A stretch of DNA of 64,000 nucleotides from an uncultured Actinomycetota bacterium. Its GTDB lineage: Bacteria > Actinomycetota > Thermoleophilia > RBG-16-64-13. Shown here piece by piece: positions 1 through 41,170 of the stretch. The notes beneath the pieces were generated by a model. That model had not been told where the DNA came from and made no database searches. It saw only the letters and a list, made by a program, of their open reading frames with translations. The stretch's first letter is position 1; each line of letters opens with the position of its first letter. A program made the position numbers and the translations under genes. Location: positions 3,065 to 67,064 of the forward strand of contig CAWDOM010000013.1 in NCBI GenBank assembly GCA_963803925.1. Direction: 5' to 3'.

Positions 1-973
1 TCTGGAAACAGTTTCTCCAGCCATTGCCCGAGGTAGAGGTATCGCAACCATCTGCCGCGCTTGGGAGTGGAATATAGTCGGCACTTATTGATACGCCGCT
101 AAAATTGCTGCCATTGGCGTGCAGCCGGACATAGTAGGTGGCTGCAGTCGGATTTGCGATTGTACTTGTTTCGTTATTGGTGCCTGAGGTGCGAACACGG
201 TAGTCGTAGGTCCCCGTGGTCGGCGCACTGTTTCGTCTTATATACAAATCGGCACTGGTACCGGTGCCGCCTGAACTTCGGATTGTCAGGCTACTCAGGC
301 CCGCCGGAACATCGATCGTATAGCTCCCGGTCAGATTTCCGTTGGTAATCGACCCGGTAGGATTTGGTGTGCCGGTAATTGCAAGTGACGTCGCGGGCGG
401 AGCCACATATGCCCACGTACTCGGACCGTATTACGCGACCATCGGTCAGTATCTGGTAACGCCAATAATTGGTTGGCTCATTCAGATAGGTAAGCGTGCT
501 ATTTGTGAGGTTTTTCGGCACATAATAGGTTTGAACAGAACTGCTTAAGTTGATGGTTCCACTTGCCATTGAAGCCAAAGTAGAGGCTCGAGTAGGCTGC
601 ATTGTAGGTTACATCTGCTACATAGTTGCCGGTGCCTAAATAATCACTCCAGGGGGTATAGGTAGTGGCGGGATTGTAATAGATGCCGTTGCGCGCATAG
701 GTTTGCTGGCCAATATTCGGAGCATTGGTCGTCGGCGCGGTGTCGCTGGTGGCCTCGGGCGCTGCCATGAAAGTGCTTCGGCATGGAACCCGAGTCATCC
801 AGGATGAACATGATGTTCGGCGGTATCGTCGAGCTCGATTGCAGCGGCGAGTCTGGAATGGATATGCCTGAAATTGCAGGGGATGCGATAAGCACTGCAA
901 TAAAACCAAGGGCGCTGGCACTGAGTGTGCGCCTGGCAAAGGCATAAGGATTGGTTTTTGAACTTGTTTTCAT
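1..973 (-). pseudogene. pilY1: PilY1-like type IV pilus tip/adhesin protein, N-terminal ~320 codons (continues past window start); frame broken at least 3 times
   Basis: The track ORF at 644-973 gives a signal peptide plus PPNIMFILDDSGSM (PilY1/vWA MIDAS-like DxSxS). The reading continues in other frames (499-945, 291-602, then a fourth frame to position 1). The last segment encodes a PPC-like motif, SGGTGTSADLYIRRNSAPTTGTYDY...ATYYVRL. Confidence 0.55.
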
Positions 974-1543
974 GACATTCCCCTAGTTAGGGCTTGGTGA
1001 AATTGGATTGAATGATTACCGTTGCACGGTTCGCTTGTGTACTGCGTGTAGTAATTCGGTAAACCTTGACCATGACTGGCGGATCGCCATCCAGGACGCC
1101 GATGGTCGTTATGGACTTTGGTGTTTGCACCCATGTACTCGATCATGTACTGGGGTACTGCGGTCAGACCATCTTGGTCTACATCTGTGGTGGCCATCGC
1201 CCAAGGACACCCCGCAGTGGGGGATTACAGCGTTTTCCCAACGATTGGCGCCGCACTAGCGACTGGTTGTGGGCACAGGCCGGCCGCACATGCAGCACCG
1301 CAGTGCCGGAAATGTCGGTGTCGGATTCGCTGCAAGAATTGCTTCGGCATCACGCATGGCGGCTTCTGCCGCCTGAAAACTCAGGCTGCGATCAAATTGG
1401 CCGGCGCCCATTTTTTCCTGCATCAATGCTGCCCGCATGCTGGCCAAGCCTAGCAAGGTCATGATCAAAAGCAGAATAAGGATGATGGTGAGTGAGACAC
1501 CACGTTGTCGGCGGACGCCATGCTTCGTTTGGTAGGCCATCAT
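970..1543 (-). pseudogene. pilX: PilX-like minor pilin, frameshifted
   Basis: The N-terminus QRGVSLTIILILLLIMTLLGLASMRAALMQEKM is the PilX_N pattern (ORF 1256-1543). The C-terminal part lies in a different frame (ORF 970-1197). The total span is about 191 codons, as expected for PilX. Confidence 0.55.
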
Positions 1544-2581
1544 AAGTTGCGATTCCGTAAAGTGACGGTGCTGGAAATTTGGCGCTGGATTTGATTGCCA
1601 TCGGTGCCGATATTTTCTTCGCCACGTAAAAACAGGGTGACGCGCACAGCGTTAACTGCGGTCCAATCAGTGACTAAATTCGCCGTCCTGTAGCTTGTCG
1701 CACCTGAAACCAGGTACGTAATAGTCATGTTTTCTACGCCTTTGGCAATTTCCTGATTTTGACTGGTGACGGCACCGGCAGTATTCGACATGGTGCTTTG
1801 AAAAAGTGAACGTCCACCATCCGGGTCGTTACTGGTTCCGATATACCAACGCACGGCACGAAGTTTCGCCAGCGTTGCGTGAGGGTCCGGATTGGTTTCG
1901 CTGACAGCCATAAAATCATAGTCGGCCCCGTACCGCACGCGCCACTGGTCAAGCCCAAATTAGTGTTGCAATTGCCGGGAGTTCCGCCGGCGGCAGTAAG
2001 TGACCGTTGTTGGAACAGTAGTAGGTACGCTATTTAATTGAAAAATGGCAGCCTGCGTGTAATTGCATGCGACCACGATATCGCCATTGGCCAAATCAGT
2101 CGCAACGGTATTATTCAAGGTAAACGAATCAGAGGCTGCATTATGGGTATTCACGCTGTAGCCGCTGTTACTTGCCGACATCAGCAAGATGGCATCTGTA
2201 CCCGTGAGCCGGGCACCTGCAGCGGTGCCAAAGGCCGCATCGGGAAATGGAGTGGTACTAGAAAAACCCTGGACACCGCCATTGCGGTCCAGGCGGTCCA
2301 CCACGTTGTTGTACCCGAATTGATCACATTGGCAACTAAAGTGCGTTTGCACAAGGAGACGCGGCTGCCTCGCGAATATCGCGGGATAATAATTCAAACG
2401 ATGTCCGCATATTTTCCTGAATCCGCCCGACATTCTCCGATGCTACGGAGGTTTGACGATTCGAAAGAAAAATCGCGATGGCACTACCCACGACCAATAA
2501 ACCGATAAGAATCGAAACCATCAACTCGATTAAGCTCATGCCGCGTGTGGCGGCAGTAAACGCTGAAGCGCGATATTTCAT
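1540..2581 (-). pseudogene. pilW: PilW-like minor pilin, disrupted (frame switch ~2400; in-frame TAA at 1960-1962 or paired indels)
   Basis: The prepilin N-terminus is TRGMSLIELMVSILIGLLVV (ORF 2336-2581). The middle part is ORF 1960-2433 and the C-terminal part is ORF 1540-1938. Operon order matches fimU-pilVWXY1. Confidence 0.6.
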
Positions 2582-3034
2582 ATTCTGCTCCGGGTAATGG
2601 TTGTTTGTGCAGAAGACCCGCCACTACCGCGACTATCGTCCCATTCGACAGTAATCGTGCACACATTCGATGCACAAGTGATTGTACCGCAGGCAGCGAC
2701 ACCAATCGTTCCCTGAAGATTGGCCATCCAGGCATTCAAATCGTTTTCGTGCCAGAGTCGTGCCGACAGCAGGCACCGTGCACGTACGTGTCATGTTGTA
2801 GTCATTAGCTCTGGCGGCAATCAGATTGGCACGCATGGAATCCAGAATGCTGTAGGTATGCATGACCGCCTGGCTGCGCTCCATCGAACTTTGACCGTTA
2901 CGAAGCGTAATAGCCTGCATTGAGGCAATCCCCAGCAAACCGATACCCAATATCAACACCGAAATAAGCACTTCAATCAAACTGGTCCCGGTTTGATGTG
3001 CCTGTCGTGCAGCTCGCATTTTCGATTTTTTCAT
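2578..3034 (-). pseudogene. pilV: PilV-like minor pilin, single frameshift near 2755
   Basis: The N-terminus is QTGTSLIEVLISVLILGIGLLG (type IV pilin methylation motif). The track ORF ends in Cys/Arg-rich junk. Hand translation of the alternate frame gives WHENDLNAWMANLQGTIGVAACGTITCASNVCTITVEWDD, ending in a TGA that overlaps the pilW ATG. Confidence 0.65.
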
Positions 3035-3076
3035 GGCTAATTCTTCAAAGACAAATATGGAAATGCAGATACCGTT

Positions 3077-3683
3077 TTAATTTGATGGCGCAGTACAGCT
3101 CGCAGTGGCATTACGTCTGTCAATGCGCAAACTTCCGCCACCCGTGGTAAATGTAACGTCACGTGCGTTTTGCGGAGGCGTAGTCGTGGCAACACAAAGC
3201 GAGACCTTGCCGAGCAGCAAATTGCCCCCGGTGGTTCTTGCCATCCCGTCTGGCCTGAAAACAACGGCCGCATCCACATTGCTGCTCGCGGTTGCCGTTA
3301 CACCGCTCAAAGGATTAACGGAGAGCAAAGTATCGCCATCAGAAGTTGCAAAAGTGTTGTTTCGGTTCGCGTCAACGAAAACTAGCCAGCCACTCCAGCT
3401 AGTCCCTGCGCTGCAAGTCGGCGTCGCCGCGGCGGCATTGGCACTTCCGCACACGACAACTCTTGCGCCGCGCCGGATTGATTCAAGTCGTGCAAGCTGA
3501 AAATTGGCCAGTAATTCATTCGCCTGACTTGTGACGCGATTACTGTTCAAGAATGAAGTGAACGGACGGAACAGCCAAGGCAAGTAAAATCGCTGCGATG
3601 GCGATAGTGATCATCAATTCGACCATCGAAAAACCACGTTCTGCCAAGGGCTTGCTGTACGGCGCAGCCAATTTTCGTTGCAT
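3077..3683 (-). pseudogene. fimU: GspH/FimT-FimU family minor pilin, one extra base near 3570
   Basis: Hand translation from ATG 3683 gives MQRKLAAPYSKPLAERGFSMVELMITIAIAAILLALAVPS, then a stop. The +1 frame continues FTSFLNSNRVTSQANELLANFQLARLESIRRG (ORF 3077-3583). It sits immediately upstream of pilV. Confidence 0.6.
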
Positions 3684-3872
3684 ATGAGCCCCCAAAGCCT
3701 CTCTTTAATATGAAGGGAGTGTATTTTGACTTCTGTGGAATCGCCAGCTAAGACCGACTAACGGGGCAAAAAAAGGCCTTAGTGGTCACTAAAGTATCCC
3801 GTGACGAGGCCGCTCTGGATTCCAAAGGGCAAAAACGGGCAAGATGTCACACCACATCGAGTTATAAACCGA

Positions 3873-4892
3873 ATGTCCCGCAGCAGCTTACCTGATCAAC
3901 CGATTGATATCCTATGGCGAACCGTCACACTGGTTTCGATGGTGCTGGCCGGCGAAGGCCTGGCCCTGGTCATGTCATTGACGCCGGGTTTCAGTACCGA
4001 CCGATGGGTATATTTCGGGCTCAGCTCGCTACTCATACAATGGATATTGCTACTTACGCTCGGCAGCCTTCATCTGATAAAGGATCGCATTGCCAAATAT
4101 TCGGTGAGTACACTTTCCTGGATCGGCCTGGCACTTTTGGTATTAAGCACCTGGTTGGTTTGCGGCACATGCTGGTACGTATACCAACGGGTTTCACATT
4201 TGAGTTATGCCAGCGGTTTTTACTTCCTGTTTCAATGCACTGCCATTGCCATCACTATCGGCGTGCTGGGCTTGATCGCGCTGCAGCACCACTGGCGTAC
4301 GCATCAATTGGCACTCGCCAATAAACAGGCAGAACTTGATGCACTCCAGGCCAGGATTCAACCGCATTTCCTGTTCAACACTCTCAACACTTGCGCTGCA
4401 CTTGTTCACCAGAATCCCGAACAAGCCGAAGATCTTTTACTGGATTTGAGTGAGTTATTTCGCGCTGCCTTGTCGGAATCCAAATTGATCAGTCTAGATG
4501 ACGAGCTTACACTTGCTCGTCGTTACCTAGAGATTGAAGCACTTCGATTCGGAGATCGCATAAAAATAACCTGGCAATTACCGGACACGATTCCTGCCGT
4601 CGTATTGCCTGCTCTTTCAATACAACCGCTGGTGGAAAATGCTGTCCGGCATGGCATTGAACCAGCCGAGAATGGCGGCGACATTGAAATCCATGTGCGA
4701 GAAGAAAACAATGCTCTATTGATTATCGTCAGCAATTCGCTTCCAAAGACGACGAGCAATATCAGAAAGGGGCATCATATTGGCCTGGCCAGCACTCGTG
4801 AACGCATCGAGAACTATAGCGACGGCAAGGGTCAGGTCTCGACTGCAATAAAAAATGGCCGCTTTGAAGCGACCATTTCATTGCCTTCCTAG
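3873..4892 (+). CDS. algZ: LytS/AlgZ(FimS)-type sensor histidine kinase (His_kinase + HATPase_c_5), intact, with no adjacent LytTR response regulator
   Basis: Four or more TM helices are followed by ARIQPHFLFNTLNTCAALV (H-box) and QPLVENAVRHGI (N-box). ATG 3873 is preferred over the tracked GTG 3801. It is divergent from the pilin operon. Confidence 0.75.
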   Translation: MSRSSLPDQPIDILWRTVTLVSMVLAGEGLALVMSLTPGFSTDRWVYFGLSSLLIQWILLLTLGSLHLIKDRIAKYSVSTLSWIGLALLVLSTWLVCGTCWYVYQRVSHLSYASGFYFLFQCTAIAITIGVLGLIALQHHWRTHQLALANKQAELDALQARIQPHFLFNTLNTCAALVHQNPEQAEDLLLDLSELFRAALSESKLISLDDELTLARRYLEIEALRFGDRIKITWQLPDTIPAVVLPALSIQPLVENAVRHGIEPAENGGDIEIHVREENNALLIIVSNSLPKTTSNIRKGHHIGLASTRERIENYSDGKGQVSTAIKNGRFEATISLPS

Positions 4893-4899
4893 CTTTTGG

Positions 4900-5710
4900 C
4901 TAGACACTTACAACCCGATAGCACGGTTTGTATTCACCGCTCATCTTCATTCGCCGCTGGGCAACGAATGCCTGCAACAAGCCGTCGAGTGCTTTCATGA
5001 TGTCAAGATCGCCATCAATCTGGAATGGTCCGTGCTGCTCGATATTTCGCATGCCGTCTTCCTTTACATTGCCGGCAACGATTCCGGAAAATGCACGCCG
5101 CAAATCAGCCGCCAGCAAATGCACGGGTTGTTCGTGATGCAGATTCAGGCCAGCCATTGCCGCATGATCCGGCACAAAGGGCTGCTGGAATTCAAACGGA
5201 ATGTGCAATGACCAGTTGAAGAAGAAAGCATCTTTTTCCGCGATACGCTGCTCGCGCACTTTCTTCATGCCCAGAGCCATTTGTCTTGCGACCTCGGATG
5301 GATTATCGACAATTATCTTGTAACGCGAGGTGGCTACTTCGCCCAGGCTCAAGCGCAGAAATTGATCGATCTGCTCGAAATATGCCGCCGATGATTTGGG
5401 TCCGGTAAAGATGAGCGGGAACTGCATATCCACATTGTCCGGATGCAACAGAATACCGAGCAGATAGAGAATCTCTTCCGCCGTGCCGACACCGCCGGGA
5501 AACACGATGATGCCGTGGCCGACACGGACAAACGCTTCAAGACGTTTTTCGATATCGGGCATGATCACGAGATGGTTCACGATCGGGTTCGGTGACTCGG
5601 CCGCAATAATTCCCGGCTCGGTTATACCGATGTAGCGATTATTGGTTCTGCGCTGTTTTGCATGTGCAATGGTGGCGCCTTTCATAGGACCTTTCATCGC
5701 ACCCGGTGGC
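4900..5710 (-). CDS. ppnN: PpnN/YgdH-type LOG-family nucleotide 5'-monophosphate nucleosidase, C-terminal ~270 aa only (5' end cut at the junction)
   Basis: Motifs present: [67 protein letters not shown] and PCYRVV. The full-length family is ~450 aa. The first ~18 tracked codons are read-through into high-GC DNA. Confidence 0.75.
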
Positions 5711-5735
5711 ATCGGCGAACTGTGCCGGCACGGCT
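5700..5735. other. Composition and synteny breakpoint (contig join or chimera)
   Basis: ppnN homology (minus strand) stops at ~5709 and fabD homology (plus strand) starts at ~5711. Both genes are truncated. GC jumps from the high 40s to the mid or high 60s percent (by eye). Confidence 0.7.
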
Positions 5736-6517
5736 CGATGGAGCAACTGACGCGCACCGATCGCACTCAGCTCACGATCCTCACCTGCAGCGTGGCGGCT
5801 TGGAGGGTGCTCGAGCAGAACGGCGCCACGTTCACTGTGGCCGCCGGCCACTCGCTCGGCGAATACTCCGCTCTCGTGGCGAGTGGGCGCATGACCTTTG
5901 CCGACGCACTCCGCGTGGTCGACGTGCGCGGCCGGGGCATGCAGGCCTGCGGTGAGGAGAAGGGCGGCACCATGGCGGCGATCATCGGCCTGGACGATTC
6001 GGCGGTCGAGGAGATCTGCTTGTCGCTCTCCGAGGTCTGGGTCGCCAACTACAACTCGCCAGGCCAAATAGTGATCTCCGGCTCGGTGGAGTCAGTCGGC
6101 GCAGCCGGCGACCTCGCCAAAGAGGCCGGCGCCGCCCGTGTTCTGCCGCTGCCGGTTTCCGGAGCCTTTCACACCCCCTTCATCGAAGGCGCGGCGGTGG
6201 CCCTTCAGAAGGCGCTGGCCGACGTGACCTTCTCGCCCGGAACCGGCAAGTTCCTGTCGACGACCGAGGTGCGTTACCCCGAGCCCGGCGAGATGGCGAA
6301 AGTGCTTGCCGATCAGCTCATGTCGCCCGTTAGGTTCGCGCAGAGCATGCAGAAGATCATCGGCTCTCCCCAAGCCCCGCTGTCGGGCTTCGAGGTGGGG
6401 CCCGGCAACGTGCTGAGCGGGCTGATGAAGCGTATCGACCGTGAGTTCCCGATGGTCTCCAGCGGCGACGCAACCACTCTGCGGGCGGCGCTCGACCTGA
6501 TCGGAGGCGCGCGATGA
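5711..6517 (+). CDS. fabD: Malonyl-CoA:ACP transacylase, lacking ~50 N-terminal residues
   Basis: [14 protein letters not shown] (active-site Ser), [10 protein letters not shown] and VSGAFHTP are present. The N-terminal GQGSQ region is missing. The stop overlaps the fabG ATG (ATGA). Confidence 0.85.
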
Positions 6518-7269
6518 GCGGCGCGCCCGCGGCGTTCGAGGGACAGGTCGCCCTCATCACTGGAGGCGCCAGGGGTATCGGGCGGGCCATCGCAACCAGG
6601 CTGGCGAGCGATGGGGCGAAGGTCGCCATCGTCGACATGGCGGAGACCGGGGCCGAGACGGCGCGCGAGATCGAGCACGCGAGCGGACGCCAGGCGGCCT
6701 TCGTCAAGGCGAACATCTCCGACGAAGCCGACGTGAAGAGGGCTGTCGCCGAAGTCGAAGCTGTTCTTGGCCCGATCGACATCCTCGTCAACAACGCGGG
6801 CATCACCCGCGACAACTTGATGCTTGTCATGAGCGAGGCCGACTGGGACGCGGTGCTCACCGTGAACTTGAAGGGAGCCTTTCTTGTGAGCAAGGCGGTG
6901 CTCCGCGGCATGATCAGGCGGCGCCGGGGCTCCATCGTCAGCATCTCTAGCGTTGTCGGCCGGCGGGGCAACGCTGGGCAGGCCAACTACTCGGCCGCCA
7001 AGGCCGGTCTCATAGGGCTCACAAAGTCCCTCGCACGCGAAGTGGCCTCGCGTAACATCAGGGTCAACGCGGTGGCTCCGGGATACATCGAGACCGACAT
7101 GACTGCTGCACTCGGCGAGCAGGCGCGCAAGGCCTTGGTCGACGCGATCCCGCTGGGACGTATCGGGAGCCCCGACACAGTGGCCGACGCGGTTGCGTTC
7201 TTGGCTGGGGATTCTGCTTCATTCATAACCGGAGTGGTACTTCCGGTCGATGGTGGTCTTGGTATATAG
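6514..7269 (+). CDS. fabG: 3-oxoacyl-ACP reductase (SDR)
   Basis: TGGARGIGRAIA, NNAG and the YSAAKAG catalytic motif are present, in a fab operon context. Confidence 0.85.
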   Translation: MSGAPAAFEGQVALITGGARGIGRAIATRLASDGAKVAIVDMAETGAETAREIEHASGRQAAFVKANISDEADVKRAVAEVEAVLGPIDILVNNAGITRDNLMLVMSEADWDAVLTVNLKGAFLVSKAVLRGMIRRRRGSIVSISSVVGRRGNAGQANYSAAKAGLIGLTKSLAREVASRNIRVNAVAPGYIETDMTAALGEQARKALVDAIPLGRIGSPDTVADAVAFLAGDSASFITGVVLPVDGGLGI

Positions 7270-7429
7270 GAGGCTGCAGAACAATGAAACCACGGCTCTC
7301 AGGACACGCTGGCCGGCACGACCGCGCGTCCTCGGTCGCGCAACTAGCGCTGCTGTCAGCGCTTTCTGCGTCCTTCTCTCTCGCGCGGCGATCGTGCCCG
7401 GAGCGCGAGGCGTCATTTTCCGCAGCCTC
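7270..7429 (+). repeat. 160-nt intercistronic element A, bounded by terminal inverted repeats (MITE-like or structured RNA)
   Basis: The left end is GAGGCTGCAGAACAATGA. The reverse complement of the right end is GAGGCTGCGGAAAATGA. The element starts right after the fabG TAG and is followed by TAG. It is homologous to element B at 28321-28480. Confidence 0.55.
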
Positions 7430-7441
7430 TAGCAGAAGGAG

Positions 7442-8716
7442 ATGTCGGTAGCTATGAGCGGTGCACCGAGGACAATCGAGCTGAAACGGGTGGTGGTCAC
7501 CGGTATCGGCGTCGTTTCGCCCATCGGTATCGGCAAGGAGGCCTTTCTCGAGGCGCTTCTCGCGGGCAAGTCGGGCGTCAGGAAAGTGGGACGTTTCGAC
7601 ACGACGGACTATCCGGTCAAGATCGCGGCCGATGTCAAGGATTTCGATCCGTTGACCTATATCGACAAGAAGTGGAGCAAGCGGATGGACCGCTACGCGC
7701 AGTATGGCGCGGGCGCCGCCCGGATTGCGCTCGAGGATTCGGGCTATCCGGTCGAAGAAGACCCGTTCGCCGTCGGGGCGCTCATCGGCTCGGGGGTCGG
7801 CGGCCTCGACACGTTCTATGAGCAGATCACTGTGCTTTTGGAAAAAGGCCCGGCGCGGGTGAGCCCGTTCTTCATACCCATGATGATTCCAAACATGGCT
7901 TCGGCCTGCGCTTCGATCATCTTGGGGCTGCAGGGGCCAGTCAGCGCGACGTGCACCGCCTGCGCCGCCGGCACAAATGCGCTGGGCGACGCTTTCAACA
8001 TCGTGCGCAGGGGTGAGGCGACGGCCATGCTGGCGGGCGGCGCCGAGGCGGCCGCCAACCAGGTGGGGCTGTCTGCCTTCGCGGCGCTGCGGGCGCTCTC
8101 CTCGCGCAACGACGACCCCGAGCGGGCAAGCCGGCCGTTCGACGCCGGCCGCGACGGGTTCGTCATCGGTGAGGGCGGGGGAGTGCTCGTCCTCGAGGAA
8201 CTGGAGCATGCTCTGGCCCGCGGGGCCCACATATACGCCGAGTTCGTAGGTTACGGCATGACCGGCGACGCCTCACATCTCACCGAGCCGGTCGAGACGG
8301 GCGAGCCCGCCGGGCTGGCCATCACCAAAGCGCTCCGCGATGCGCGCCTCGAGCCCACCGACGTCGACTACATCAACGCCCACGGCACGTCGACCCCACT
8401 CGGCGACGCCATGGAGACCAACGCGATCAAGCGCGCGCTTGGCGACCACGCCTACAAAGTGATGATAAGCTCCAACAAGAGCATGTTCGGGCACTGCCTG
8501 GGCGCCGCGGGGGCGCTCGAAGCGGCGGCTACGATCCTGTGCATGCAGGTGGGAATGGTGGCTCCTACTATCAATCAGGAGGAGCGTGATCCGGCATGCG
8601 ATCTGGACTATGTGCCGAATGTGGCCCGGAAGGCGGAAGTCAATGTCGCTGTGTCCAACAGCTTCGGGTTCGGTGGGCACAACGCCTCTATAGCATTGCG
8701 CAGGTGGCATGGCTAA
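7442..8716 (+). CDS. fabF: Beta-ketoacyl-ACP synthase II
   Basis: Active-site ATCTACAAG (Cys), HGTSTP and NSFGFGGHN are present. An AAGGAG Shine-Dalgarno (SD) sequence lies upstream. Confidence 0.9.
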   Translation: MSVAMSGAPRTIELKRVVVTGIGVVSPIGIGKEAFLEALLAGKSGVRKVGRFDTTDYPVKIAADVKDFDPLTYIDKKWSKRMDRYAQYGAGAARIALEDSGYPVEEDPFAVGALIGSGVGGLDTFYEQITVLLEKGPARVSPFFIPMMIPNMASACASIILGLQGPVSATCTACAAGTNALGDAFNIVRRGEATAMLAGGAEAAANQVGLSAFAALRALSSRNDDPERASRPFDAGRDGFVIGEGGGVLVLEELEHALARGAHIYAEFVGYGMTGDASHLTEPVETGEPAGLAITKALRDARLEPTDVDYINAHGTSTPLGDAMETNAIKRALGDHAYKVMISSNKSMFGHCLGAAGALEAAATILCMQVGMVAPTINQEERDPACDLDYVPNVARKAEVNVAVSNSFGFGGHNASIALRRWHG

Positions 8717-23421: not shown

Positions 23422-23465
23422 ATCATCCCTCCTTGTGGATCCCCATCGGGTGACGAAAGCAAAGA

Positions 23466-23477
23466 GCATTATTAGCA
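23466..23477 (-). promoter_or_regulatory. Second copy of the TGCTAATAATGC box, upstream of binding-protein gene 2
   Basis: The 12-mer is identical to the one at 22486-22497, and the downstream context is similar (TTTG[TC]TT). Confidence 0.4.
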
Positions 23478-23563
23478 CGCAAACGTATTGTGCGTCGCCC
23501 AGTGCGCCCCGCGGACGAGGCATCGTCTTTCCGCAGGCTCCTATAGGTATACTCCTTCATATA

Positions 23564-26955: not shown

Positions 26956-27141
26956 GCGGCCGCGGCGCTTGATTCTGGCGGTGGCGGTGGCGCCGGTCCT
27001 GCCGGTGCGGAGGCCGCGAGGCGATCTGCCAGCGCTCGGCGGCAAATCTGGTCGCGCTCGGGGCTCCTGGATACCTATTCAGTGTCATAACTAGCTATAA
27101 GCGTTCCGCGCGGGACCCTCAGGATGCTAAACTGCGTGACC

Positions 27142-28320
27142 ATGGAAGATTGGCATAGTCATCTATTGAGGGAGCGGATCGACCAGAGCAGTCTGGTCAT
27201 CCAGGGCAACCGGGCCAGCGCGCTTGGCGCGCTCGATGCCGGTGTGCGTTTCTTTGCCGGCTACCCCATCTCGCCCAGCTCCGAGATCATGGAGGCCATG
27301 GCGTACGAGCTGCCTCGCTCGGCTGGGGTCTTCGTGCAGATGGAAGATGAGATCGCATCGGTCATGGCCTGCGTCGGCGCGGCGCTGACCGGCGAGGTGG
27401 CCATGACCGCCACATCGGGCCCGGGCTTCTCGCTCATGCAAGAAGGCATCGGCTACGCGATCATGGTCGAAGCGCCGATCGTGATCGTCAATGTGATGCG
27501 CGTGGGGCCCTCCACTGGGCGGCCGACCGCGCCGTCGCAAGGCGACGTCATGCAGGCCCGCTGGGGCACCCACGGCGATCACCCGGCCATCGTGCTGGCA
27601 GCCTCCAACGTGGCCGACATGTATCGGCTGACGATGGCCGCCGTCCGCTTCGCCCAGCGATTCCGCACGCCCGTCATCCTGCTCGCCGACCAGCTCGTCG
27701 GCCAGATGCGCGAGAGCTTCTCGCCCGAACTGGTCGGCCGTTACCGTCTTACGAGCGGTGACTTCGATTTCTCGCCCGCATACATCAAGCCCGATGTCGC
27801 GCGCGAGGTGCGTTCGACCCACGTGCTGGGCGACGGCAACCATCCGCATGTCACCGGCTTGTACCATGACGAGACGGGCTTTCCGACCAACGATCCTGAG
27901 CAGAGCGATACGTTCCTCCGCGAGCTCTATAACAAGGTTGCCCACCATCGCAGCGAGCTCTGCCTCTACGACGTCAAGAACGAGGGCAAGGGCCGGGTGT
28001 GCATCGTGGCGTACGGGTCGTGCGCTCGCACCGCCCGGGCCGCCTGGAGACTGGCCGAAGAAGAGGGTCTGCCGGTCGAGGTCCTGCACCTCTACACGCT
28101 GTTCCCGCTGCCGGTCGAGATCGTCCAGCAGGTGGCGCGTCGCGTGGAGTTCATGCTCATCCCCGAACTGAACCTGGGCCAGTACGCGCACGAGGTGCGC
28201 AAGATGGCCGAGCAGTGGACCACCGTCATCGGCATGAACAAGATCGATGGCACGCTGTTCACTCCGCGTGAGATCCTCGACCGCATCGCCGAGCTCATCG
28301 GCAAGTACGAGAGCGTGTAG
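27142..28320 (+). CDS. korA: 2-oxoacid:ferredoxin oxidoreductase alpha subunit (copy 1)
   Basis: GNRASALGALDAGVRFFAGYPISPSSEI and ATSGPGFSLMQEGIGYA are present. It is ~85% identical by eye to copy 2. Confidence 0.85.
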   Translation: MEDWHSHLLRERIDQSSLVIQGNRASALGALDAGVRFFAGYPISPSSEIMEAMAYELPRSAGVFVQMEDEIASVMACVGAALTGEVAMTATSGPGFSLMQEGIGYAIMVEAPIVIVNVMRVGPSTGRPTAPSQGDVMQARWGTHGDHPAIVLAASNVADMYRLTMAAVRFAQRFRTPVILLADQLVGQMRESFSPELVGRYRLTSGDFDFSPAYIKPDVAREVRSTHVLGDGNHPHVTGLYHDETGFPTNDPEQSDTFLRELYNKVAHHRSELCLYDVKNEGKGRVCIVAYGSCARTARAAWRLAEEEGLPVEVLHLYTLFPLPVEIVQQVARRVEFMLIPELNLGQYAHEVRKMAEQWTTVIGMNKIDGTLFTPREILDRIAELIGKYESV

Positions 28321-28480
28321 GAGGCTGCTGACAAATGACGATTCGCCGTCAGAACGTGATAGGCATGCTCAAGACAAGGACGCAGGGAGCGTCAATAGCA
28401 GCGCTATTGGCGCGACTGCGGACGAAGTATTGTGCCGTCCAGCGCGTTCTGGCGGCCGAGGCTCCTTTGTCTGCAGCCTC
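28321..28480 (+). repeat. 160-nt intercistronic element B, bounded by terminal inverted repeats (MITE-like or structured RNA)
   Basis: The left end is GAGGCTGCTGACAAATGA. The reverse complement of the right end is GAGGCTGCAGACAAAGGA. The element starts right after the korA TAG. It is absent from the paralogous korA2-korB2 spacer. Confidence 0.55.
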
Positions 28481-28492
28481 GATAGGACAGCC

Positions 28493-29347
28493 ATGCCTCT
28501 AGCCATAGAGAAGTTCGTTCATACCGAACGGCTGCCCCACATCTGGTGCCCGGGCTGCGGCATCGGCAGTGTGGTGTCGGCGTTTCTCCGCGTCGCGGTG
28601 GATCTGGGTCTCGAGCGCGAGAATACCGTGGTCGTGAGCGGCATCGGCTGCTCCAGCCGCGCCTGCAACTACATCGACATGGGCACGGTGCACTCGATCC
28701 ACGGGCGCGCCCTCGCGGTGGCGACCGGCATCAAGATGGCTCGCCCCGATTTCAACGTAGTCGTCTTCACGGGCGACGGCGACGGTGCTGCCATCGGCGG
28801 CAATCACCTCATCCACGCCTGCAGGCGCAACATCGACCTCACCTGTGTACTGCTCAACAACCAGGTGTACGGCATGACCGGCGGCCAGCTCTCGCCGACC
28901 ATGGAGATCGGCGACAAGGCCACCACCGCCACTGACGGCAACGTCGAGCGGCCCTTCGATCTGTGCCGGTTGGTTGAGGCCGCCGGCGCGACCTTCGTAG
29001 CTCGTGGCACCGCCGCCAACATCCGCCAGACCGAGATGTTCATCAAGAAGGGCCTGCAACACCCAGGCTTCGCCTTCATCGAAGCCGTGGTCCCGTGCCC
29101 GACCGAGTACGGGCGCAGGCAAGGCATGAAGAACGTGGTCAAGATGCTCGACGACGAGAAAGAGCGCACAGTCACCAAGCTCAAGGCGTCGAAGATGACG
29201 CCCGACGAGCTGTCTGGCAAGATCGTCACCGGCATCCTTCACGAGGACAAGACGGTCCCCGAGTTCCAGCGAACGTATGCGGCGTCGGCACGCGCGTTGA
29301 CGCGAGCCGCGGCCGAGCAAGCCCCTATCCCCGAGGAAGAAAAGTGA
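28493..29347 (+). CDS. korB: 2-oxoacid:ferredoxin oxidoreductase beta subunit (TPP-binding, copy 1)
   Basis: WCPGCGIGSV, GIGCSSR and TGDGDGAAIGGNHLIHA are present. The start is set by alignment to copy 2 (MALEIERFLHTERLPH). Confidence 0.85.
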   Translation: MPLAIEKFVHTERLPHIWCPGCGIGSVVSAFLRVAVDLGLERENTVVVSGIGCSSRACNYIDMGTVHSIHGRALAVATGIKMARPDFNVVVFTGDGDGAAIGGNHLIHACRRNIDLTCVLLNNQVYGMTGGQLSPTMEIGDKATTATDGNVERPFDLCRLVEAAGATFVARGTAANIRQTEMFIKKGLQHPGFAFIEAVVPCPTEYGRRQGMKNVVKMLDDEKERTVTKLKASKMTPDELSGKIVTGILHEDKTVPEFQRTYAASARALTRAAAEQAPIPEEEK

Positions 29348-29973
29348 TCCCCGGAACCTCGCTCCCAGACGGCCGGGCGGAGTTGCCCCCGGCCGGCTCG
29401 CAGGCCGCCCCCGTCCGTGAAGGGCTGCTCGCCGACCGCACCTTCGTCGAAGTCCGCTTTGGCGGCAGTGGCGGCCAGGGTGTTCTGCTCATGGGGGTCG
29501 TGCTCGCGGTGGCGGCCAACCACGATCACCGTTGCGTCGTGCAGACTGAGACATACGGTCCCGAGGCCCGCGGCGGGTCGAGCCGCAGCGACGTGATCAT
29601 CTCTGACCTGCCGATCGACTATCCGAAGCTCGATAGCGCCGACCTCTTGCTTGCCCTGTCGGTGCCGGCGGCCAACAGCTACATCAAGAGCCTGCGCCGC
29701 ACCGGCGTCTTCATCTACGATAGCGGTCTGATCGAGGAGCCTCCCGCGTTCTCCGGCACCACGTTCGGCATTCCCTTCTCCCACCTGGCCAAGGAAGAGA
29801 TCGGCCGCGTGCAGACGGCGAACTCGCTGGCGCTGGGAGCCGTCGTCGGCATAACCGGCATCGTTTCGGTGGAGTCGCTGCGCAAAGCCATCATCGAGGC
29901 GGTACCTTCTGGCACCGAGGAGATCAACGCCAAAGCGTTGGCCCGCGGATTGCAGGCTGCCGAGGAGTGCTGA
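29344..29973 (+). CDS. 2-oxoacid:ferredoxin oxidoreductase gamma subunit (copy 1)
   Basis: GTG start overlaps the korB stop (GTGA). VRFGGSGGQGVLLMG and ETYGPEARGG are present. Confidence 0.8.
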   Translation: MIPGTSLPDGRAELPPAGSQAAPVREGLLADRTFVEVRFGGSGGQGVLLMGVVLAVAANHDHRCVVQTETYGPEARGGSSRSDVIISDLPIDYPKLDSADLLLALSVPAANSYIKSLRRTGVFIYDSGLIEEPPAFSGTTFGIPFSHLAKEEIGRVQTANSLALGAVVGITGIVSVESLRKAIIEAVPSGTEEINAKALARGLQAAEEC

Positions 29974-37798: not shown

Positions 37799-38251
37799 CT
37801 AGCCTTCTTGTTCGGTCTGTGCGGCGAGTTTCACCTCGAGGCTGCGCGCCAGGGCCTCGATCGCCGCGTCTTGCGCTGCCAGATGGGCTTGGATCTGCTG
37901 GGCTTCGTGAAGCACGGCCTCGGCGTCGTTGTAGGTGCTCATGGCACGCTCGTCGGAGGCGCGGCCAATGACCGTTTGGCCCACCATGATGACGCTCAGC
38001 AGCACCAACTGCAGAAACGTCTGAGATACCCATTGGACCGTTGTCAACGCCCCGCCCTTGATTGCCTGGGGCAGCGCGACCAGAGCAAGCGCGGCGAAGG
38101 CGTAGGCGCACCACATGGTGCCGACCGCCTCTGTTATTCGCCGTGCGAGCCGGCCGTTGAAGCCTAGGCCGTGCAGCTGCCTCGTCGTTCGTGGCGGCTT
38201 GTCTTTGCGGGCGGACGTGTGCGGGTGCGGCACATAGCTGAACAGACTCAT
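37799..38251 (-). CDS. Small membrane protein with a C-terminal coiled coil (DUF1003 / low-affinity-iron-permease-like; uncertain)
   Basis: Only the last 150 codons of the tracked 447-aa ORF are plausible. They contain two TM helices followed by EAQQIQAHLAAQDAAIEALARSLE. The rest is antisense to korA2. Confidence 0.45.
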   Translation of the reverse strand: MSLFSYVPHPHTSARKDKPPRTTRQLHGLGFNGRLARRITEAVGTMWCAYAFAALALVALPQAIKGGALTTVQWVSQTFLQLVLLSVIMVGQTVIGRASDERAMSTYNDAEAVLHEAQQIQAHLAAQDAAIEALARSLEVKLAAQTEQEG

Positions 38252-38416
38252 GGCAGACATCCTCTCTTGCGGCACCTCCGCGGGGAAGTGGACGACGCGT
38301 GTGGCGGTCTCTGCGATGATGGTAGCAGTCGCCGGCCGTGGCACGTTCCTGAGTCCGGCCAGATCGTCAGGGCGCCAGCGCCGGCAGGTCGCGCGCGGTG
38401 CTATGCTCAGACTGCT

Positions 38417-39595
38417 ATGGAACTGTGGCACGGCCATCTGCTCCGCGAGAAGGTCGATCAGAGCAGCCTGCTTGTCCAAGGCAATCGGGCCTGCGCGCTC
38501 GGCGCGCTCGACGCCGGTGTGCGCTTCTTCGCCGGATACCCCATCACCCCCAGCTCGGAGATCATGGAAGCCATGGCCTACGAGCTCCCCCGGGTGGGCG
38601 GCGTGTTCATGCAGATGGAGGACGAGATTGCGTCCATCTGTGCCTGCATCGGGTCGTCGCTGGCGGGCAAGCTGGGTATGACCGCCACCTCGGGACCGGG
38701 CTTCTCGCTCATGCAGGAGGCCATCGGCTACGCCATCATGGTCGAGGCGCCACTGGTGGTGGTCGACGTCATGCGGGAGGGGCCGTCCACAGGGCGGGTG
38801 AGCGCGCCCTCCCAAGGGGATGTCATGCAGGCCCGTTGGGGCACGCACGGCGACCATCCGGCCATCGTGCTCGCGGCCTCCAACGTGGCCGACATGTATC
38901 GCTTGACCATGGCGGCGGTGCGGTTCGCGCAGCGCTTCCGCACGCCGGTCACCGTCTTGGCCGACGAGGCGGTGGGGCACATGCGCGAGAGCTTCTCGCC
39001 GGAACTGGTGCGCCGGTACCGCCTTACCAGCGGAGACTTCGACTTCACGCCGGGCTACGTACACCCCGATCTGGCGCGCGAGGTGCACGCGCCGCACGTT
39101 CTGGGCTCCGAGACCTATCCCCACGTGACCGGGTGCACTCACGACGAGACGGGATTCCCGACCAACGACGCCAGAAAGAGCCAGACATTCTTACGAGAGC
39201 TGTACGACAAGGTGACCAACCACCGGGATGAACTCTGTCTCTACGACCTCAAGAACGAGGGCAGAGGACGCGTGTGCATCGTCGCCTACGGGTCGTGCGC
39301 GCGGAGCGCTCGGGCGGCCTGGCGGCTGGCGGAGGAAGAGGGCCTGCCGGTGGAAGTGCTCCATCTCTACACACTCTTCCCGCTGCCGGTGGAGGTCGTC
39401 CAGCAGGTGGCCAGACGGGTGGAGTTCATGATCATCCCCGAACTCAACCTGGGGCAGTACGCCCGCGAGATCCGCAAGCTGGCCGAGCAGTGGACCACGG
39501 TCGTCGGCATGAACAAGATCGACGGAACCCTCCTCGCCCCGCGGGAGATCCTCGATGAGGTGATCAGGCTGATCGGCAAGTACGAGAGCGTGTAG
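38417..39595 (+). CDS. korA: 2-oxoacid:ferredoxin oxidoreductase alpha subunit (copy 2)
   Basis: Colinear with copy 1 from MELWHGHLLREKVDQSS to GKYESV. Confidence 0.85.
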   Translation: MELWHGHLLREKVDQSSLLVQGNRACALGALDAGVRFFAGYPITPSSEIMEAMAYELPRVGGVFMQMEDEIASICACIGSSLAGKLGMTATSGPGFSLMQEAIGYAIMVEAPLVVVDVMREGPSTGRVSAPSQGDVMQARWGTHGDHPAIVLAASNVADMYRLTMAAVRFAQRFRTPVTVLADEAVGHMRESFSPELVRRYRLTSGDFDFTPGYVHPDLAREVHAPHVLGSETYPHVTGCTHDETGFPTNDARKSQTFLRELYDKVTNHRDELCLYDLKNEGRGRVCIVAYGSCARSARAAWRLAEEEGLPVEVLHLYTLFPLPVEVVQQVARRVEFMIIPELNLGQYAREIRKLAEQWTTVVGMNKIDGTLLAPREILDEVIRLIGKYESV

Positions 39596-39650
39596 GGAGC
39601 GGGAGTGGCGACTGGGACCGGCCTGACGTCGCGACGCTAGGAGACACGGC

Positions 39651-40523
39651 ATGGCGCTCGAGATCGAACGGTTTCTGCACACGGAGCGGTTGCCACACAT
39701 GTGGTGCGCCGGGTGCGGTATCGGCATCGTCACCGGCGCCCTGTTGCGGGCGATGGTCGACCTGGAGCTCAAGCGCGAGGAGACCGTCGTGGTCGGCGGA
39801 GTAGGCTGCTCGAGCCGCGCCGCCGGATACGTGGACGTCGGCAGCATGCATACCATCCACGGACGGGCGCTCGCCTTCGCCGCCGGCATCAAGATGTCGC
39901 GGCCGGAGTTCACGGTCATCGTGGTCACGGGCGACGGCGACGGGGCGGCGATCGGCGGGAATCATCTGATCCATGCCTGCAGGCGCAACATCGACCTGAC
40001 CTGCATCCTCTACAACAACCAGGTGTACGGCATGACCGGCGGGCAGATATCGCCCCAGGCGGGGTGGGGCGACGTGGCGACCACGGCCCCATACGGCCAA
40101 GTGGAGGAGTCGTTCGACCTGTGCCGGCTGACCCAGGCCGCTGGGGCGACATTCGTCGCCCGCGGCATCGCGGCCGACCCACGGGCCCTGCGGCAGATGA
40201 TCAAGCAGGGCATCGAGCACCAGGGCTTCTCGTTCATCGAGGCTGTGGTGCCGTGTCCCACGGAGTACGGCAAGCGGAACGTCAAGGGCGGGGTGCTCGC
40301 CATGCTCGACGACGAGAAGGCGCGGGCGGTGGAGGTGGGGGCGGCCGCGAAGCTGCCGCCCGGGGAACTCACGGGCAAGATCGTCACCGGCGTTATGCAT
40401 CGCGACACAGGTCGACTCGAGTACCAGCGCGCCTACGCCGGCATCGTCGAACGGGCACAGGCTGAGGCCGAGGCCGCCGCGGCAGAGTCTCTCGGGGAAC
40501 AGGGGGAGGAGTTACAGGCATGA
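39651..40523 (+). CDS. korB: 2-oxoacid:ferredoxin oxidoreductase beta subunit (copy 2)
   Basis: WCAGCGIGIV and TGDGDGAAIGGNHLIHA are present. The spacer after korA2 is 55 nt. Confidence 0.85.
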   Translation: MALEIERFLHTERLPHMWCAGCGIGIVTGALLRAMVDLELKREETVVVGGVGCSSRAAGYVDVGSMHTIHGRALAFAAGIKMSRPEFTVIVVTGDGDGAAIGGNHLIHACRRNIDLTCILYNNQVYGMTGGQISPQAGWGDVATTAPYGQVEESFDLCRLTQAAGATFVARGIAADPRALRQMIKQGIEHQGFSFIEAVVPCPTEYGKRNVKGGVLAMLDDEKARAVEVGAAAKLPPGELTGKIVTGVMHRDTGRLEYQRAYAGIVERAQAEAEAAAAESLGEQGEELQA

Positions 40524-41170
40524 GCCCCATCACCGACCTATCGGCGCCGCCCCCGGTGGGCGAGGGCCCCTCTCCCGATCGGGCCGGGCTGCTGGCCGAG
40601 CGGACGTTCGTGCAGGTGCGCTTCGGCGGCACCGGCGAGCAAGGGGTGGTCCTCGTCGGCGTGGTGCTCGCTATGGCGGCGACGCGAGACCACCGCTACG
40701 TGGTACAGACGCAGACGTACGGCCTCGGTGCTCGGGGTGGCTACGGGCACAGCGACGTGATCATCTCCGACAAGCCCATCGACTACCCGGAGCTGCAGGC
40801 CGCCGATCTGCTCGTCACCCTGTCGCAAGACGCCGCCGACGGGTATTCTGACCTGCTGACGCTATCGAGCGTCTTCATCTACGACTCGGAGGAAGTGACG
40901 TCGCCGCCGGCCTTCACGGGCGCGGTTTTCGGCATCCCGTTCACGCGGATGGCCCGCGAAGCGGTCGGTGAGGTCGACGCGGCTCCCAACGTGCTGACCC
41001 TCGGCGCGGTGGTAGCCATAACCGGCGTGGTGTCGGTGGAGTCGCTTGAGAAGGCGGTACTGGCAACTATCCCGCCCGGCACCCGGGAGGCGAACGGTCT
41101 GGCGCTGAAGCTGGGCCTGGCCCTCGATGCTGAGGCGTGGCGAGTCACGAGGAGTCGCACATGCTTGTAG
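40520..41170 (+). CDS. 2-oxoacid:ferredoxin oxidoreductase gamma subunit (copy 2)
   Basis: VRFGGTGEQGVVLVG is present, with an ATGA overlap with korB2. Confidence 0.8.
   Translation: MSPITDLSAPPPVGEGPSPDRAGLLAERTFVQVRFGGTGEQGVVLVGVVLAMAATRDHRYVVQTQTYGLGARGGYGHSDVIISDKPIDYPELQAADLLVTLSQDAADGYSDLLTLSSVFIYDSEEVTSPPAFTGAVFGIPFTRMAREAVGEVDAAPNVLTLGAVVAITGVVSVESLEKAVLATIPPGTREANGLALKLGLALDAEAWRVTRSRTCL

Follow-up and report, generated by a model that had tools for sequence, protein, structure and literature searches.

What occupies the junctions between fabG and fabF and between korA and korB in the genome of an uncultured member of the Actinomycetota? In the window, the 64,000-nt stretch of contig CAWDOM010000013.1 analysed here, both spacers held an element of exactly 160 nt with the ends GAGGCTGC...GCAGCCTC; this pair of ends, placed 130–160 nt apart, matched twice in the window and never in 100 shuffled sequences. 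The initial annotation had wavered between a MITE-like insertion (a MITE is a miniature inverted-repeat transposable element) and a structured intercistronic RNA. The best explanation, which we regard as very likely, is a MITE not described before, whose movement is probably due to an IS5-like DDE transposase (IS, insertion sequence). The idea of an insertion was borne out by inverted repeats, short target-site duplications (TSDs), many dispersed copies, empty sites, re-insertion and nesting. The nearest named relatives of the source were 'Actinobacteria bacterium RBG_16_64_13' and metagenome-assembled genomes (MAGs) of Thermoleophilia.

The first copy, element A, was located at positions 7270–7429, full-length and in the plus orientation of the family (nhmmer E = 1e-42). 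As first annotated, it began right after the TAG stop codon of fabG (7267–7269, plus strand) and was followed on its other side by a second TAG (7430–7432, plus strand), which reads CTAG together with the last C of the element. The left TAG doubles as the stop codon and the left TSD copy, and the right TAG is the other copy; ATC TAG in the relatives indicates that the target was CTAG. Both the fabF ribosome-binding site (RBS), AAGGAG at 7436–7441, and the fabF ATG at 7454 were found 3′ of the right TAG; we placed the start at 7454, the homologues being 420 aa long. Element B was located at 28321–28480, also full-length, in the minus orientation (nhmmer E = 5e-45, minus strand), and here too the length and the ends agreed with the initial description. 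The TAG at 28318–28320 (plus strand) has two roles, as the stop codon of korA and as one TSD copy of B. The second TAG (28483–28485, plus strand) was separated from the element end by GA (2 nt), i.e., the duplication is partly decayed, and it overlapped the weak korB RBS (TAGGA), with the korB ATG at 28493. In L245 (loci from other contigs are designated by L and a number), an orthologous filled site, TGTGAGGACAGCGATG was read where the right TAG of B lies. FabG and FabF were identified by their homologues and the Pfam domains adh_short and ketoacyl-synt, and KorA and KorB by their homologues and the domains POR_N/PFOR_II and TPP_enzyme_C.

The relative orientation of the two copies had to be corrected. 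They had been described as lying in the same orientation relative to their host operons; both operons are on the plus strand, and A and B are mutually inverted. The reported identity of about half of the positions in an ungapped, same-orientation alignment was itself reproduced (75/160, or 47%; shuffle mean 42, maximum 65). The reverse orientation, however, aligned far better, with 98/160 ungapped identities at a 1-nt shift and ~ 72% identity with two 1-nt gaps, and a same-orientation homology of A and B was therefore ruled out. Family members from other genomes matched A on the plus strand (76–80%) and B on the minus strand (75–78%), and the family hidden Markov model (HMM) scored ~ 150 bits in one orientation and ~ 30 in the opposite one. 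Since the HMM and the independent relatives favour one orientation, the element has a defined polarity despite being a palindrome.

Further copies were abundant. A one-genome-per-species collection scanned with both termini returned at least 119 stretches, and the JGI metagenomes scanned with a 19-base core pattern at least 120; both scans were pattern-based. The resulting copy numbers should be read as minima, and the conservation of those positions that the patterns themselves specify is partly forced. With nhmmer, at least 144 family places were found over ~ 1.5 Mb of fetched contigs. Seventy-seven copies could be clearly delimited at both ends; their most frequent length was 161 nt (range 159–166 nt), and 11–14 of 14 end positions matched as inverted repeats. 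Because these copies are related by descent, the cell counts given below exceed the number of independent events. Clustering placed A and B together with family members of five MAGs from uncultured Actinomycetota or Actinomycetes (L053, L056, L074, L088 and L103), and all close relatives of the element, among the matches listed, came from uncultured Actinomycetota or Actinomycetes MAGs. One of these loci, L056, contained three copies within 8 kb, and the window contained two full copies and one remnant. The family is widespread in uncultured soil Actinomycetota.

The statement that no named repeat family matches the element also stood. A BLAST search of the plasmid collection with element A gave only chance hits; Rfam gave no match at the gathering score across the whole window and only noise on both elements at E ≤ 10; and a full-text literature search for GAGGCTGC, and for bacterial MITEs together with CTAG, returned nothing relevant. 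Apart from a discussion of mycobacterial-type MIRU repeats, no Actinobacteria MITE family of this kind was found in the prokaryotic MITE reviews (PMC3184786, PMC10969869). The family is thus a previously undescribed MITE family of uncultured Actinomycetota.

Empty sites were found in relatives at both junctions. At the fabG–fabF junction, three relatives (L240–L242, 82–83% FabF identity) had ATC TAG, 21–22 nt and ATG, and the window has ATA TAG, the element, (C)TAG, 21 nt and ATG. Removing the element and one TAG from the window yields the architecture of the relatives, meaning that the ancestral form is restored and that the target was CTAG. Two closer relatives (90–92% identity) had fabG–fabF spacers of 19 and 38 nt, as judged from gene coordinates only. 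The korA–korB junction was empty in L243 and L244 (TAA-CCC-ATG) and in L247 (TAG-CC-TTG), with spacers of 2–3 nt, and was filled in L245 and L246 (89% KorA identity) at the same place and in the same orientation as B. The window itself provided another comparison: a paralogous korA-korB-korC operon at 38171–41170, sharing 78–79% DNA identity with 27124–29973, has a korA that ends in the same GKYESV-TAG, followed by a 55-nt spacer (39596–39650, plus strand) without the element. In L199, the korA–korB junction carried a copy of another subfamily in the opposite orientation, which is an independent insertion at the same junction. Moreover, a subfamily-2 copy was nested near the centre of a subfamily-1 copy, an arrangement conserved across three contigs (L148 8463–8791, L183 2688–3012 and L149 1–297).

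The flanks of the copies agree with target duplication. The 3-mer flanking the left end was repeated at the right end in 23/77 copies, compared to ~ 2/77 for displaced controls (Fisher p = 3.5e-13). The duplicated triplets were TAG (mostly inside CTAG), TAA, TTA, TGA and CTA. As the pairs TAA..TAA, TTA..TTA, TGA..TGA and CTA..CTA are not palindromic, they cannot be read as a longer inverted repeat and show a true duplication. The duplication is 3 or 4 bp long, and the palindromic nature of CTAG prevents the outermost base of the element from being fixed.

The anatomy of the element (about 160–161 bp, gene-free, termini starting with GAG, the whole sequence an imperfect palindrome) fits a MITE moved in trans by a DDE transposase that cuts T/A-containing triplets with a 3-bp stagger. 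The inverted termini would be recognised in trans by a transposase, a DDE enzyme of the IS5 type (IS1031/IS427-like) being the most likely candidate; this enzyme would insert the element at TAG, TAA, TTA or TGA, typically within CTAG, duplicating 3 (to 4) bases. In genomes of 65% G+C, insertion-tolerant triplets of such a kind would very often be stop codons. The duplication of a stop codon would keep the upstream frame closed and leave the downstream RBS intact, and with the stop duplicated and the RBS intact the element can sit inside operons. It would thus be tolerated in fabG–fabF, korA–korB and rpmJ–rpsM and be co-transcribed as a long hairpin, and such a hairpin may affect mRNA stability or translation of the neighbouring genes.

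The placement of the copies was analysed with a simple gene finder based on G+C at third codon positions and checked on the window; for the metagenome loci its gene calls are heuristic. In 38 of the 77 copies the element end was ≤ 1 nt away from a flanking gene's stop codon, and in 46 it was ≤ 10 nt away, e.g., rpmJ-TAG, element and rpsM in L103, or TGA and element in L053. The surrounding genes were co-directional in 43 cases, convergent in 16 and divergent in 4. Stop codons make up 9.4% of the candidate target triplets outside gene bodies, versus 49% observed (binomial p about 3e-19), although this null is crude in that it ignores selection against insertions in promoters and RBSs. Target availability alone therefore fails to explain the abutment of stop codons. 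The family strand was 26:25 relative to the abutting gene and 16:11 relative to operon direction; the orientation relative to the adjoining gene is random. As a separate observation, in L171 (2718–2885) and L191 (1214–1381) the upstream open reading frame (ORF) has lost its own stop and enters the element for six codons, ending at the TGA of AAATGA in the terminus, while the opposite end directly adjoins the downstream ATG; a stop codon and a new C-terminus can thus be furnished by the element.

Both window copies folded as one long imperfect hairpin, with −78.8 kcal/mol for A (z −4.1) and −89.3 kcal/mol for B (z −7.1), and none of 200 shuffles was as stable in either case. Further copies, empty sites in relatives and a fold well beyond shuffled controls, which the initial annotation had looked to as deciding points, were thus all found, and the compensatory changes it had proposed to seek strongly support the hairpin. 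In nine copies ascertained by their termini alone, RNAalifold predicted 52 pairs with 91% of the cells paired, versus 28–47% in slid controls, and compensatory changes in 15/52 pairs, versus 1–5; none of 500 shuffles reached the observed values. In 72 copies, many pairs alternated among GC, CG, AU and UA.

The two window copies also contain an apparent gene: GGAGG, a spacer of ~ 9 nt and an ATG opening a 55-codon ORF that ends at the start of the next gene (7284–7451 in A, 28335–28502 in B). The Shine-Dalgarno-like GGAGG is composed of TAG plus the terminus, and the ORF length is identical in both copies. The two ORFs, however, are read from opposite strands of the family sequence; no frame was open in all copies (best 47/77), the ATG was present in 31/77 and the lengths varied by non-multiples of three. 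The chance that the element encodes a 55-aa peptide is negligible, and we consider this proposal effectively refuted.

The hairpin is not symmetrical with respect to strand. The minus strand of the family folded better in 76 of the 77 copies (mean −98.6 vs −80.1 kcal/mol), and the consensus energies were −67 kcal/mol for the minus and −29 kcal/mol for the plus strand. Among the minus-strand pairs, G·U outnumbered A·C by 386 to 50 cells, with ~ 18 positions of frequent G·U and ~ 3 of frequent A·C. Of the two window copies, B places the better-folding strand in the korAB mRNA, and A places the weaker one in that of fabGF. The asymmetry tended to be stronger, at marginal significance, where the host mRNA contains the better-folding strand (p = 0.05). 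We disfavour replication strand as the cause, given that both orientations occur within a few kb of each other and that the GC skew across the window is monotonic. In other MITE families of the GAGGCTGC type the copies are nearly identical and thus uninformative on strand asymmetry.

These features invite a different account, in which the element is primarily a functional structured RNA, or was co-opted as one after insertion, and transposition is only the means of its spread. Possible roles are those of an intercistronic or 3′-end hairpin for mRNA stability or processing, or a coupling of stop to start across the 160-nt spacer. The covariation, the pair switching, the G·U excess on one strand, the frequent abutment of stop codons and the high identity of orthologous copies described below all speak in its favour. 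On the other hand, the better-folding strand is sense to the adjoining gene only half of the time, A sits in the "weak" orientation, copies are also found between convergent genes, and at both junctions close relatives do without it. The transcribed strand of A and of B showed neither a promoter nor a terminator signal, and Rfam offered no match. An intrinsic terminator was likewise rejected, as no terminator-like site was present on the transcribed strand and as the genes downstream belong to the same operon, coding for its partner subunits or enzymes. We therefore hold it to be rather unlikely that the element is primarily, or has become, such an RNA. In particular, a strand-specific intercistronic RNA module as the primary nature, one of the two options raised initially, did not hold up against the 26:25 strand ratio, the mutual inversion of A and B and the copies between convergent genes.

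A whole-length hairpin with a strand-specific folding constraint is also what one would expect of a single-stranded DNA (ssDNA) intermediate. An HUH/Y1-type enzyme (as in REPIN-RAYT or IS200/IS605-like systems) might have moved the hairpin as ssDNA, or it might have recombined like an attC site, in place of a DDE reaction. Along the same line, the frequent CTAG flank is self-complementary and can be read as part of the inverted repeat, the CTAAC...GTTAG-like termini of one subfamily recall attC core sites, and placement right after coding sequences is shared with repetitive extragenic palindromes (REP) and attC. Nevertheless, copies are flanked by the non-palindromic 3-nt direct repeats TAA, TTA, TGA and CTA, and none of REPINs, IS200/IS605 elements or attC sites is known to duplicate its target. 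A short REP unit headed by GTAG is missing, the hosts are housekeeping operons and not cassette arrays, and filled and empty sites differ by the hairpin alone. Orientation was mixed within a few kb (A and B in the window, L056, L162 and L233), which argues against a dependence on the replication strand. Such a route is, in our view, highly improbable, and a MITE moved by a DDE enzyme remains our preferred explanation.

What happens to a copy after its insertion is less readily explained by a MITE. Element B and its counterpart in L245 were 89.4% identical, compared to 57% (korA) and 55% (korB) identity at third codon positions of identical residues. In L171 and L191, which share decayed flanks, the elements were 96.9% identical, the flanks 85.7% and the synonymous sites of the adjoining gene 68%. 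The orthologous copies evolve about as slowly as non-synonymous sites. The differences between them were not concentrated in unpaired positions when an independent family structure was used; an apparent concentration in unpaired sites, obtained with the structure derived from the pair itself, was circular and disappeared with the family structure. The high identity may stem from selection acting in situ, from gene conversion or from separate recent insertions into a hot spot. The independent hit in L199 makes re-insertion at a hot spot possible, and recent hits of this kind could also account for the identity of copies that appear orthologous, which weakens this point as evidence for a structured RNA.

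Several observations weigh against a plain MITE. Orthologous copies are conserved far above adjacent synonymous sites, which neutral decay of a selfish element does not predict, and the hairpin tolerates G·U in an RNA-like, strand-specific manner. Unusually for a MITE, the asymmetric core, and not the termini, is the most conserved part: some half of the 77 copies shared the core and had entirely different terminal dodecamers (GAACTCGCATCG... or GAGCTCCTAACG... vs GAGGCTGCTGAA...), so that subfamilies differ in the whole terminal 12 nt, and the termini across subfamilies begin with GAGGCTGC, GAACTCG or GAGCTCC. An exact duplication was seen in only ~ 30% of the copies, many flanks being decayed or ambiguous. 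No autonomous element with matching termini was found among pairs 500–4000 bp apart or solo termini in the window and 239 loci (1.5 Mb), and the likeness to IS1237, discussed below, does not go beyond the initial GAGG and the kind of duplication. Finally, the copy sets were ascertained by sequence patterns, and the counts are lower bounds. A candidate parent IS in L005 was rejected since it had no transposase, and a Pfam scan of the low-G+C left end of the window revealed pilin, kinase and PpnN genes and no transposase.

The MITE explanation leaves four features over: the association with stop codons, a core that is kept while the termini are exchanged, strand-specific covariation, and orthologues that evolve slowly. 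It is conceivable, albeit doubtful, that the element is a mobile structured module kept under selection after insertion and not merely selfish DNA. The core and the RNA-like covariation may then reflect either a host function, namely the tuning of operon junctions and gene ends, or a single-stranded RNA or ssDNA step in propagation. If true, this would account for the swapping of termini around a retained core, for an evolution rate near that of non-synonymous sites and for the excess of stop codons, with stop-touching copies making up half of all copies, about fivefold above the availability of target triplets.

Other features of the window and of individual copies should also be mentioned. 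A probable truncated third copy was detected with moderate confidence at 23457–23540 on the minus strand (nhmmer E = 0.0086, model positions 1–102). It is a degenerate half-copy in a divergent intergenic region, with the family-like terminus GAGCCTGCGGAAAGACGATGCC... on the minus strand, CTA/TAG flanks and an end reading ...CCGCAGGCTC followed by CTATAG; its fold was not significant. In L074, a second, solitary left terminus, GAGGCTGCTG, was found at 4760–4775 directly after the right TAG of the element, with unrelated sequence beyond it; this terminus may be what is left of a neighbouring copy. Two copies, L122 1076–1236 and L194 3820–3981, were 99% identical and shared the left flank, with unrelated right flanks, which could reflect a rearrangement or an assembly break at the element. 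The G+C content of the window is 47–56% up to about position 5640 (1–5640) and 61–69% thereafter. This sharp break falls inside fabD (5642–6517), which is apparently N-terminally truncated: its Pfam profile match starts at position 52 of 319, and the protein has 291 aa versus 310–313 aa in relatives. Upstream of fabD, the relatives have fabH and a FabA-like gene, and the window has pilin-like genes (PilW, GspH, N_methyl), a LytS-type histidine kinase and a PpnN/LOG-like gene. The break near 5640 could be the border of a genomic island or a chimeric assembly join.

The present family adds a MITE to the uncultured, Thermoleophilia-like Actinomycetota of soils and sediments, a group without a MITE entry in the prokaryotic reviews (PMC3184786, PMC10969869). 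It also illustrates a route by which a transposon can enter compact high-G+C genomes, in which a stop codon is duplicated and both neighbours stay intact, even between the subunits of one enzyme. In practice, the elements lengthen intergenic spacers, give rise to false 55-aa ORFs and over-long gene calls, and may interrupt metagenome assemblies or join them wrongly. Should the conservation and strand asymmetry reflect function, the family would offer a natural system for studying the co-option of mobile hairpins in post-transcriptional operon control.

Among known systems, several repeats share single traits with the element. REPs and REPINs are likewise abundant extragenic hairpins, often located just 3′ of stop codons in operons and kept by compensatory change. 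REPINs, however, are paired 20–40-nt units headed by GTAG and lack a duplication, and the 160-nt unit, the GAG termini and the flanking direct 3-nt repeats rule out an assignment to this class. In E. coli, terminating ribosomes can be stalled by REP hairpins that lie no more than ~ 15 nt from a stop codon; by analogy, a hairpin abutting a stop codon could modulate the upstream gene. Mycobacterial interspersed repetitive units (MIRUs) resemble the element in being actinobacterial, intercistronic, co-transcribed and present or absent between species, but they are direct tandem repeats of 40–100 bp with small overlapping ORFs, whereas the element is a single palindromic unit with inverted termini. 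A repeat of the MIRU type was rejected on account of this palindrome and of a direct-repeat scan that found no head-to-tail repeat at either site, a scan that was not a dedicated tandem-repeat search.

Integron attC sites (57–141 nt) come closer in form, being imperfect palindromes directly after a coding sequence whose structure is conserved over sequence and whose folding is strand-specific. The element differs in that its window copies have no RYYYAAC/GTTRRRY core sites, it occurs in both orientations with flanking duplications, it is not found in cassette arrays, and filled sites have gained the hairpin alone, without a cassette. An attC identity was thus ruled out by the ends GAGGCTGC/GCAGCCTC, by the hosts, which are fab, kor and ribosomal-protein operons, and by the 26:25 orientation.

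With respect to the transposase, the element has termini starting with GA/GAG and a 3-bp duplication at a TNA-like target, as in IS5-like elements. In IS1237 of Leifsonia xyli, a member of the IS5 family, the inverted repeat starts with GAGG (GAGGTGGTTTCAGTAGTCG; GAGGTGG...) and the direct repeat is TTA/TAA; recognition of a three-nucleotide target is a feature of the IS1031 group (PMC2516522). The IS427/IS1031-group elements IS1237 and ISLxx6 thus share with our element an actinobacterial host, GAGG-type ends and a 3-base duplication (PMC2516522). They differ in being 800–900 bp long with a transposase gene, and their termini match only its first four bases. Neither the window nor the related loci yielded an IS bounded by GAGGCTGC or GAACTCG. 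The link to the IS5 family (IS1031/IS427) is the best documented match in type and should be taken as a lead only.

Unrelated MITE-like families with GAGGCTGC-N-GA termini were also observed elsewhere, namely in Acidobacteriota (L003, L020, L021 and others), Nitrospinota (L006 and others), Vulcanimicrobiota (L005 and others) and Firmicutes (L008, L012, L049 and L078). The acidobacterial family is ~ 151 nt long (21 copies sampled) and occupies palindromic CGACT-TNA-AGTCG-like sites; the flanks are CTAG in Vulcanimicrobiota and 7–8-nt direct repeats in Firmicutes. In an Acidobacteriaceae MAG (L026 6294–6602), segments resembling the right terminus (...TTTTCGGCAGCCTC) are repeated in tandem every 44 nt beside a MITE. 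The recurrence of these ends across phyla suggests a widespread transposase group with such an end sequence.

The closest overall resemblance is to Chunjie of Geobacter uraniireducens, Correia of Neisseria, ERIC of enterobacteria and Nezha of cyanobacteria (PMC3184786, PMC10969869). Like our element, they are ~ 100–250 bp long and gene-free, with terminal inverted repeats, short direct repeats, many intergenic copies, filled and empty sites and a very stable hairpin. The element has no sequence similarity to them and belongs to another host phylum; its duplication is 3 nt at TAG/TAA/TTA/TGA, compared to 9 bp for Chunjie, and, unlike in these families, half of its copies abut a stop codon and its core is more conserved than its termini. 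According to the title of its paper, Chunjie can reside in an operon without breaking it (PMC3184786, PMC10969869). By analogy, operon-resident MITEs that are co-transcribed as hairpins, such as Chunjie, Correia and ERIC, would be the nearest functional precedents for elements A and B (PMC3184786, PMC10969869).

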